This document shows positions 49,573 through 49,726 of a stretch of 64,000 bases of DNA, piece after piece. The notes under the pieces are model-generated. The model saw nothing but the letters and a program-made list of their open reading frames with translations. It searched no databases and was not told the DNA's origin. Origin of the DNA: a virus (Duplodnaviria > Heunggongvirae > Uroviricota > Caudoviricetes); the IMG/VR virus record IMGVR_UViG_3300037466_003757, positions 54,680 through 118,679 of that record. One strand, written 5' to 3'. Positions within the stretch are counted from its first letter, which is position 1. Each line of letters opens with the position of its first letter. Made by a program: the position numbers and the translations under genes.

Positions 49573-49726
49573 GAAACAAGATCGGGTGGAATCGAACCAC
49601 CGGCGGACCGCCGTCCTTTTTGAGACCATCGTCCCGCGCAGTAACGGGATGTTGGAGTCGAACCAACCTGCTCAGCCAGAGCCTTGACGGAATCGAACCG
49701 TCTACCGACCATCTCGATCTTGTTTC
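49573..49726 (-). ncRNA. structured RNA: three T-arm-like hairpins enclosed by a perfect 12-bp stem
   Basis: GAAACAAGATCG/CGATCTTGTTTC closing stem; inner hairpins GACGG-TTCGATT-CCGTC, GTTGG-TTCGACT-CCAAC, GGTGG-TTCGATT-CCACC. Confidence 0.4.

Follow-up and report, generated by a model that had tools for sequence, protein, structure and literature searches.

What kind of RNA gene lies at positions 49573–49726 of the 64,000-nucleotide (nt) stretch of phage DNA analyzed here (part of IMG/VR record IMGVR_UViG_3300037466_003757; the whole stretch is referred to as the window), where three copies of what looks like the T-arm of transfer RNA (tRNA) are enclosed by a single long stem within a tRNA array? 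Phage tRNA arrays are seen as sustaining translation and as a means of escaping tRNA-targeting defences, and to our knowledge almost no RNA genes are known in them beyond transfer-messenger RNA (tmRNA), Y RNAs, and the unexplained species 1 and species 2 RNAs of phage T4. Comparison with relatives shows the element to be a true member of a strongly conserved phage RNA family, one that appears to be unnamed; this new and well-supported family is built of tRNA parts, with three T-arms, each accompanied by a candidate GG partner, in a tmRNA-like shell.

The minus strand, which carries all 42 tRNA genes of the window, is also the coding side of the element. The sequence GAAACAAGATCG (49573–49584) is the exact reverse complement of CGATCTTGTTTC (49715–49726), and on the minus strand the two form a perfect 12-base-pair (bp) stem (GAAACAAGAUCG/CGAUCUUGUUUC) around three 5-bp hairpins with 7-nt UUCGAYU loops (GACGG-TTCGATT-CCGTC, GTTGG-TTCGACT-CCAAC and GGTGG-TTCGATT-CCACC in the DNA; coordinates of these and other features are collected in Table 1). 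Both the stem and the three perfect T-arm hairpins had been noticed in a preliminary description of the locus and are confirmed here; that description also counted two further small hairpins, of which there are in fact three (V, P4a and P5 in Table 1). The minimum free energy (MFE) of the element is −67.7 kcal/mol (z = −4.5; 0 of 200 shuffled sequences were equally stable), and the motif GGTTCGAYTCC occurs eight times in the window, compared with 0.2 copies expected, three of the eight lying inside the element. One helix of the single-sequence MFE structure of the window, P2 (GAGAUGGUCG/CGAUGGUCUC), was dropped, as the relatives do not support it and covariation favours a different helix, P3, which is described below.

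Relatives were sought first with a structural DNA pattern consisting of two T-loop motifs ~35 nt apart, which returned many viral contigs, a subset of them with the full architecture. A covariance model of 135 positions (R1) was built from 19 relatives only, with the window left out. Against the window R1 matches 49578–49720 on the minus strand over its entire length (model positions 1–135 of 135) with 64.5 bits and an E-value of 1.7e-17, E-values from this model being rough owing to shortened calibration; the next-best match in the window, at 29.8 bits, runs across adjacent ordinary tRNAs. At a threshold of ≥62 bits, R1 yields 61 matches comprising 56 distinct sequences among the viral and metagenome loci fetched, and all remaining multi-T-arm loci score ≤51 bits, leaving a gap below the members. 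The window has P1, T1, V, T2, P5 and T3 in order, together with the GG of the linker J1/3, the GG of site C, and an A-rich linker that reads AAAAA where the family has AAAUA.

Within the modelled helices of the 56 sequences, pairing holds in 95.9–96.6% of cells, both partners have changed in 23 of 27 modelled pairs, and the covariation score is 0.71–0.76, as against 0.15–0.16 for shuffled columns and ≤0.133 with partners displaced by 1–3 columns, figures that are to be read with the reservation that the alignment (A4) was fitted to the model and that its pair counts thus favour the modelled helices. Neither P3 nor the checks based on MAFFT alignments are affected by this fitting: RNAalifold on a plain MAFFT alignment returns the same helices with compensatory changes, as do direct pair counts on the MAFFT training alignment. 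In total, compensatory changes are present in 25 of 31 pairs. Covariation in homologous loci, on which the preliminary description had staked its proposal beforehand, is thus clearly present. It could be supposed instead that the element is non-functional debris left by the decay or recombination of tRNA genes where an array evolves rapidly, given that tRNA fragments and odd tRNA-like pieces occur in the same window and that the element is absent from a close relative of one carrier. This is hardly credible, as one architecture is shared by 56 distinct sequences from very different phages and the element also occurs outside tRNA arrays; the covariation effectively refutes it.

No family of Rfam 15 matches the element, whether in the window (at gathering thresholds and at E ≤ 10) or in eight relatives (at gathering thresholds), the best Rfam alignment on it being a partial and sub-threshold one to tRNA-Sec (23.8 bits), and ARAGORN makes no tRNA or tmRNA call on the window element. 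Full-text literature searches on tRNA-like or structured phage RNAs and on the carrier phages turned up no account of a three-T-arm RNA. The catalogue of Fremin et al. 2023 (PMC10690425), whose 8,495 candidates were mined from IMG/VR, includes some tRNA-like ones; its main text describes no three-T-arm architecture, and one of its unnamed entries could correspond to the family. The covariance model and consensus structure of the family are supplied with this work.

The consensus begins with P1 (6 bp and a usually mismatched seventh layer), the linker J1/3 (AWUGGNA, with an invariant GG), the 5' strand of P3, and T1; it continues with the V hairpin (short stem, YUGGN loop), T2, an optional extra hairpin, and site C with its GG; and it ends with a CAAAUA linker, P5 (GGNN-tetraloop-NNCC), the 3' strand of P3, a linker of 0–4 nt, T3, the 3' strand of P1, and one unpaired base. 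The optional hairpin is found in the window (P4a) and in six other members (L149, L357, L389, L395, L396 and L340), where hairpins with UUCG or GNRA loops occupy the same place. P3 was found by an unbiased scan of all column pairs, in which A4 columns 18–21 pair with columns 180–183. Its four pairs consist of one alternating between A-U and G-C, one that takes four types (columns 19–182: GC 30, CG 16, AU 5, UA 4; canonical in 55 of 56 members), an invariant G-C, and an invariant U.G, corresponding to a family pattern of NSGU with GCSN. The window has (C)GGU at 49707–49704 with GCC at 49604–49602; three base pairs are certain there, and a fourth would compete with the first pair of T3. P3 encloses T1, the V hairpin with its GG loop, T2, the second GG site and the P5 tetraloop hairpin, i.e., a bundle of five or six hairpins.

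P1 is unextended in 30 of the 56 members, and leader/trailer pairing beyond it occurs in the window and in about one quarter of the members. The 12-bp stem of the window is P1 plus a lineage-specific 5-bp leader/trailer extension; it is not the hallmark of the family, more than half of whose members have 6 bp and one mismatched layer only. In the seventh layer the window has G-C where A.C or A.A is usual in the family. P1 (6 bp plus the one mismatched layer) is stacked on the 5-bp T3, making 12 layers; G1-C is found in 40 of 56 members, and in 34 of 56 the base after P1 is A. With P1, the GG linker, P3 and T3, the outer shell mirrors the 12-layer acceptor/T-arm stack found in tRNA. The statement in the preliminary description that the element has no acceptor stem is therefore wrong, because P1, which is part of the 12-bp stem, stacks on T3 in the manner of a tRNA acceptor, giving a tRNA-like stack of 7+5 layers. 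Its view of the locus as a discrete, structured RNA that carries three T-arm mimics and no anticodon arm is supported. The fold is more than a simple cloverleaf: the covarying P3 separates the tRNA- or tmRNA-like outer shell from an inner five-hairpin domain. Of the organization that was to be looked for in related phages the three-T-arm plan with compensatory changes recurs and the 12-bp stem does not.

T1, T2 and T3 all keep their G-C closing pairs and the UUCRANU loop, and all 56 members have both the GG of J1/3 and that of the V hairpin. Site-C GG and T2 are both present in 53 members and both absent from 3, with no discordant case. At the level of motifs this co-occurrence reads as covariation and points to an elbow-type contact like that between the D-loop and T-loop of tRNA; by analogy, J1/3 may dock T3 and the V loop may dock T1. 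A different account of the same modules is that the RNA is a structured RNA unrelated to tRNA mimicry (a scaffold, a ribozyme, a sensor of ligand or protein, or an RNA-only assembly) in which T-loops are architectural and the tRNA-like ends serve maturation or stability only. This is somewhat unlikely and yet deserves serious consideration, since there are inner parts that have no counterpart in tRNA (the CAAAUA linker, P5 as a tetraloop hairpin directly next to P3, and the invariant U.G in P3) and since T2 is dispensable in three members; GOLLD and ROOL, large phage-associated RNAs found near tRNAs, reportedly self-assemble into cages. However, the three T-arms keep the full GG-UUCRANU-CC, which goes beyond the five-nucleotide T-loop motif that architecture needs, every T-arm has a matching GG site, and the RNA is small (~130 nt).

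Table 1. Features of the element and its immediate surroundings in the window, with positions on the 64,000-nt stretch (element parts in 5' to 3' order on the minus strand, followed by neighbouring features).
Feature	Position	Strand	Remarks
Stem extension, 5' strand GAAAC	49722..49726	-	Window-specific 5-bp leader/trailer pairing with 49573-49577; none in 30/56 members
P1, 5' strand AAGAUC + G as 7th layer	49715..49721	-	Acceptor-stem-like; 6/6 family P1 pairs covary; 97.6% of cells paired
J1/3 linker AGAUGGU, GG at 49710-49709	49708..49714	-	D-loop-like; GG in 56/56 members
P3, 5' strand CGGU	49704..49707	-	From unbiased covariation scan; not in search model
T1, GACGG UUCGAUU CCGUC	49686..49702	-	Stem covaries, 97% paired; loop UUCRANU in 55/56 members
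V hairpin, GCUC UGGCU GAGC	49670..49682	-	Short stem, GG in loop; 3/3 modelled pairs covary; hairpin-region GG in 56/56
T2, GUUGG UUCGACU CCAAC	49651..49667	-	100% paired; 3/4 pairs covary; missing in L152, L160, L170
P4a, UCCCGU UACUGC GCGGGA	49632..49649	-	Optional extra hairpin
Site C, CGAUGGUCUC, GG at 49627-49626	49622..49631	-	GG in 53/53 members with T2, 0/3 without T2
A-rich linker AAAAA	49617..49621	-	Family consensus CAAAUA; highly conserved columns in alignments A2, A3, A4
P5 hairpin, GGAC GGCG GUCC	49605..49616	-	95% paired; 3/4 pairs covary
P3, 3' strand GCC	49602..49604	-	Directly abuts P5
T3, GGUGG UUCGAUU CCACC	49585..49601	-	Stacked on P1; 100% paired; 4/5 pairs covary
P1, 3' strand C + GAUCUU	49578..49584	-	
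Stem extension, 3' strand GUUUC	49573..49577	-	Window-specific; first G at discriminator position
tRNA-Lys(UUU)	49735..49807	-	ARAGORN and Rfam, 63.8 bits; 8 nt upstream of extended stem
Promoter-like hexamers TTTACA-17-TACGAT	49850..49878	-	Upstream of tRNA-Lys(UUU); sigma-70-like, consensus scan only
Terminator-like hairpin	49518..49533	-	~40 nt downstream of element; consensus scan only

Among known RNAs, the outer shell most invites comparison with the tRNA-like domain (TLD) of tmRNA (RF00023), which likewise has a 7-layer acceptor stem, a single-stranded GG-containing D-loop analogue replacing the D-arm (by analogy, J1/3 would be its counterpart), a helix leading away at the position of the anticodon stem, and, after a short linker, a T-arm that stacks on the acceptor stem. 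tmRNA also occurs in phage tRNA arrays, and in Streptomyces phage Comrade it lies ~90 nt downstream of the family member. Unlike tmRNA, the element lacks an mRNA-like region or tag open reading frame (ORF), pseudoknots, and a conserved G3.U70 (in the window the third P1 pair is G-C, and 7 of 56 members have G.U there), and in its interior T-arms and GG hairpins are bundled together. Neither RF00023 nor ARAGORN calls a tmRNA on the element, the only trace being a 12.9-bit beta_tmRNA fragment on T3. A separate TLD-only RNA is present on a contig that also carries a three-T-arm RNA (L013, IMGVR_UViG_3300028587_000159): at 7989–8069 of the plus strand an 81-nt "tmRNA" scoring 51.6–60.1 bits with Rfam tmRNA has the G3.U70 pair and ~12 nt in place of the 300-nt body.

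Canonical tRNA, with its D-arm and 7-nt anticodon loop, is found on the element neither by ARAGORN nor by RF00005; the tRNA trait that the element does have is a 7-bp acceptor stem (6 bp plus the G-C seventh layer) on a 5-bp T-arm with a GG-UUCRANY-CC loop. Species 1 RNA of phage T4 (rnaC) resembles it as a small stable RNA of 139 nt from a phage tRNA cluster that ends in a T-arm and an acceptor-like stem, and differs in having one T-arm and no GG-hairpin modules; it is an analogue and not a homologue. T4 rnaC and rnaD were rejected as homologues, the best R1 score in the T4 cluster being 22.8 bits, on adjacent tRNAs.

Type II tRNA-Ser is a known RNA with which the family can be confused, since T1, V and T2 can be misread as an anticodon arm (CGA), a long variable arm and a T-arm, P5, T3 and P1 resemble variable arm, T-arm and acceptor, and tRNA-Ser is caught by the same DNA pattern. 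This confusion has entered GenBank: in Comrade (gene 129; L454 2496–2577), SparkleGoddess (131), Belfort (133) and Karp (129) a "tRNA-Ser(tcg)" is annotated that covers the first 82 nt only and leaves out half of the conserved structure, with the 3' strands of P1 and P3, P5 and T3, all of which covary. Some metagenomic members receive the same spurious call, tRNA-Ser(cga), from ARAGORN. The GenBank label is very probably a mis-annotation, here corrected, as the element differs from tRNA-Ser in having no real anticodon loop or D-arm and as normal tRNA-Ser coexists with it in the same arrays. The calls bear on the notion that the RNA is an aberrant but chargeable molecule, either a divergent tRNA-Ser or a tmRNA-like aminoacylated RNA acting on ribosomes. 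That notion also draws on the tmRNA-TLD topology of the outer shell and on the fact that Ser is the sole amino acid not covered by the 42 tRNAs of the window; it is nonetheless quite improbable. The loop that would have to be the anticodon loop is under T-loop constraints (UUCRANU, with a pyrimidine at 37) and shows no anticodon-like variation, obeying the T-loop consensus across the 56 members, UUCAAUU variants included; the tRNA-Ser call ignores the covarying P1, P3, P5 and T3; a normal tRNA-Ser accompanies the element in at least 12 arrays; and the element lacks a tag ORF, a conserved G3.U70 and any match to the Rfam tRNA or tmRNA models. For the same two reasons, the coexistence in those arrays and the behaviour of the T1 loop as a T-loop, the idea that the element replaces a missing tRNA-Ser was rejected for the family as a whole.

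The surroundings of the element, in the window and elsewhere, bear on whether it acts as a free RNA. In the window it lies between a tRNA-Lys fragment (~49369–49330) and tRNA-Lys(UUU), with a promoter-like hexamer pair ahead of the latter that matches at the level of consensus, in agreement with the placement originally given; tRNA-Lys(UUU) and the element are probably co-transcribed. Across the family, tRNA genes are present in 42 of 58 loci, and the ~330 tRNAs concerned are without exception (100%) on the strand of the element. The nearest tRNA is no more than 300 nt away in 34 loci, and often the distance is as short as 1–14 nt, which is the usual spacing of neighbouring tRNA genes. These facts would suit a cis-acting processing or punctuation element that recruits RNase P, RNase Z or RNase E to a polycistronic tRNA transcript and has no role as a free RNA, and a processing scaffold was among the functions initially suggested for the locus. 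Such a role is improbable, however, as 16 of the 58 loci have no tRNA at all, some of them being 8–14 kb long, as a single acceptor/T-arm minihelix would suffice for it and yet the elaborate inner domain covaries, and as the arrays of close relatives function without the element. A crude perfect-stem scan found no intrinsic terminators after the stand-alone copies.

No protein neighbour recurs: the most frequent, replication or recombination genes, are found at no more than 5 of 56 loci, in carriers whose GC content ranges from 43 to 70%. In a pattern scan of bacterial and archaeal genome contigs, 0 of 80 among the matches listed were members, these being chance matches, and the RNA family appears to be phage-restricted. 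BLAST searches of GenBank phages with single members were unsuccessful; a pooled query of 21 members located the RNA in 26 GenBank records of ~130-kb Streptomyces phages, in most of which the locus is unannotated, and R1 confirms Streptomyces phages Comrade (91.3 bits) and NootNoot (78.3 bits). Cultured and genetically tractable carriers are thereby identified. Phage Jay2Jay belongs to the genus of NootNoot, and its tRNA-Gly and tRNA-Arg, which flank the element in NootNoot, are ~95% identical; between them an unrelated 76-nt spacer replaces the element. Because it is present in NootNoot and absent from Jay2Jay, the RNA behaves as an accessory cassette, and the two phages form a natural presence/absence pair. 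As for the window phage itself, a host among the mycolic-acid actinobacteria is suggested by its LysB-like esterase and by the similarity of its tRNA-Lys to those of Gordonia and Mycobacterium phages.

The best explanation of the element, advanced here tentatively, is that it encodes a stable non-coding RNA, highly structured and tRNA-like, that is matured by the tRNA pathway and serves as a multi-elbow mimic of tRNA. The RNA would be transcribed together with neighbouring tRNAs (in the window with tRNA-Lys(UUU)), cut by RNase P at the 5' end of P1, and trimmed at the 3' end, where CCA would probably be added, as in tRNA. Each T-loop would then dock one GG element, like the D- and T-loops in the elbow of tRNA, and the resulting particle would be compact and contain as many as three elbow-like modules. 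Such a particle could act as a multivalent mimic engaging a universally conserved host factor that reads the elbow, the T-arm or the acceptor end, candidates being a processing or modification enzyme, a component of the translation machinery, or a defence nuclease that targets tRNA, and the effect would be to titrate or divert this factor during infection. A partner from the host is favoured because no protein neighbour recurs although the carriers span so wide a range of GC content, and an independent accessory gene is favoured because of the loci that lack a nearby tRNA and because of the difference between NootNoot and Jay2Jay. If this explanation holds, the RNA would represent a new mechanism in the conflict between phage and host over tRNAs.

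A more specific form of the proposal is a "tRNA sponge", in which up to three elbows and the acceptor-like end would form a decoy for a host factor that recognizes the shape of tRNA and not the anticodon. Taken on its own this is doubtful; if true, it would define a new class of RNAs that serve counter-defence or host takeover, encoded by a small cassette that has spread among very different phages. The target of most interest could be a tRNA-targeting anti-phage nuclease or a toxin that modifies tRNA ends; alternatively, the RNA could hijack RNase P, the enzyme that adds CCA, or enzymes that modify T-arms, in the service of the large tRNA set of the phage. A decoy role is plausible, and the apparent restriction of the family to phages, the lack of a conserved protein neighbour, and its patchiness between close relatives are compatible with it.

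Several considerations weigh against a tRNA mimic. All of the steps of biogenesis and function outlined above are inferred. T-loops are general architectural motifs, and three of them could build a fold that has nothing to do with mimicry of tRNA. The pairing of leader and trailer beyond P1 could hinder RNase P or imply some other route of processing. No aminoacylation identity element is conserved among the 56 members, P1 being variable in sequence and G3.U70 rare. The joint loss of T2 and site C represents two or three independent events only, the fitting of A4 to the model flatters the pair counts, as noted, and loss from a close relative means that the RNA is dispensable, at least in the laboratory.

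A further possibility is raised by the presence in the window, 15 kb from the element, of a Ro60/Rsr orthologue (32706–34367, minus strand; TROVE and Ro60 vWA domains, E-values of 1e-54 and 3e-40). Y RNAs of bacteria are mimics of tRNA (Chen et al. 2014, PMC4201824), Ro60 is also encoded in the Streptomyces carrier phages, 4–7 kb from the RNA, and one IMG/VR contig carries both (L304, L486); the element might thus be a Y RNA-like partner of the window Ro60/Rsr, providing a second tRNA-mimicking tether for the Ro60-exonuclease machinery. The Y RNA YrlA (RF02553) is indeed similar in being a non-coding RNA that mimics tRNA, has a T-arm and a stem closed by its 5' and 3' ends, and is found in actinophages with large tRNA arrays and Ro60. 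It differs in that its single T-arm and single D-arm are permuted in order, its Ro-binding helix is conserved, and its gene adjoins rsr; the element has three T-arms and a variable closing stem.

A role as Ro60 partner is very improbable in the light of the remaining observations. Three-T-arm RNA is present in 0 of 80 Ro60 neighbourhoods (viral contigs, ±10 kb, 1.32 Mb in all), and in the Ro60-positive phages BlueNGold and Catera, each with ~30 tRNAs and a tmRNA, it was not found in the regions searched, which included the main tRNA arrays. Two tandem YrlA-like matches already lie directly upstream of the window rsr (34819–34878 and 34967–35081, minus strand; 42.4 and 34.9 bits, both below the Rfam gathering score of 69) and are probably the phage's own Y RNAs. 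The YrlA model, by contrast, gives no match in the element region 49200–50010 even at E ≤ 10, and P1 is variable in sequence, with no GNCGAA-type Ro-binding motif seen there. A tblastn search for Ro60 on the family loci gave no supported link and was underpowered, the median flank being ~2.5 kb. The co-occurrence of Ro60 and three-T-arm RNA in a few large actinophages looks incidental. Just downstream of the window rsr is a Band_7 gene (31521–32441).

Other tRNA-like oddities occur near the element. A tRNA-Lys appears to be split, its 5' half at 49369–49330 (minus strand) comprising the acceptor strand, the D-arm and a CUU-type anticodon stem, and its 3' half at ~48640–48609 (minus strand), ~690 nt away, comprising the T-arm and CGGGGGUAC. 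Between the halves are an endonuclease-like ORF (49312–48707; weak Phage_endo_I match) and a complete tRNA-Lys(CUU), and Rfam detects no group I intron there; the split could reflect insertion of a homing endonuclease or an unusual intron. On the other side, at 49898–50004 (minus strand), is a non-canonical tRNA-like fold (z = −3.2). Its acceptor stem is 6 bp long, the loop of its D-arm comprises 4 nt, and at the anticodon site it has a 5-bp stem capped by the 4-nt loop UAAC, besides a very long extra arm and a perfect T-arm; it receives no ARAGORN call, and Rfam tRNA-Sec scores it at 17 bits. An orphan T-arm-like hairpin, GGTTCGACTCC (48561–48545, minus strand), lies outside predicted tRNAs in the spacer between tRNA-Ala(UGC) and tRNA-Lys(CUU).

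The tRNA genes of the window, at 29808–53008 on the minus strand, cover 19 amino acids, tRNA-Ser alone being missing. They include unusually long calls for Ile (94 nt), Cys (89 nt), Glu (88 nt) and Asn (83 nt) and one call with a 4-base anticodon (51159–51234), and the tRNA-Leu calls are all 74–76 nt and thus without a long variable arm. Within the array, on the same strand as the tRNAs, lies a gene for a DUF7873 protein (44782–45591, minus strand; E-value of 3e-91).

Other contigs carry oddities of their own. A second recurrent multi-T-arm plan, often directly following a tRNA, consists of a T-arm, a CUCGNUGGNCGAG hairpin with a GG loop, AUCUGGUGAAG, another T-arm, and further "CUGGUGA" repeats; it is carried by viral contigs L001, L008, L015, L018, L035, L040, L041, L042, L084, L091 and L106, scores 30–41 bits with R1, and is probably a separate undescribed family made from the same modules. 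A few hundred nt upstream of the three-T-arm RNA of L119 is an odd tRNA gene (2337–2460, minus strand; Rfam, 44.5 bits) with complete acceptor, D- and T-arms and 69 nt in place of the 17-nt anticodon arm. The full-length Rfam tRNA match of L119 had suggested that the element might be a tRNA with an insert, an idea that was rejected, as the match belongs to this different, neighbouring gene.

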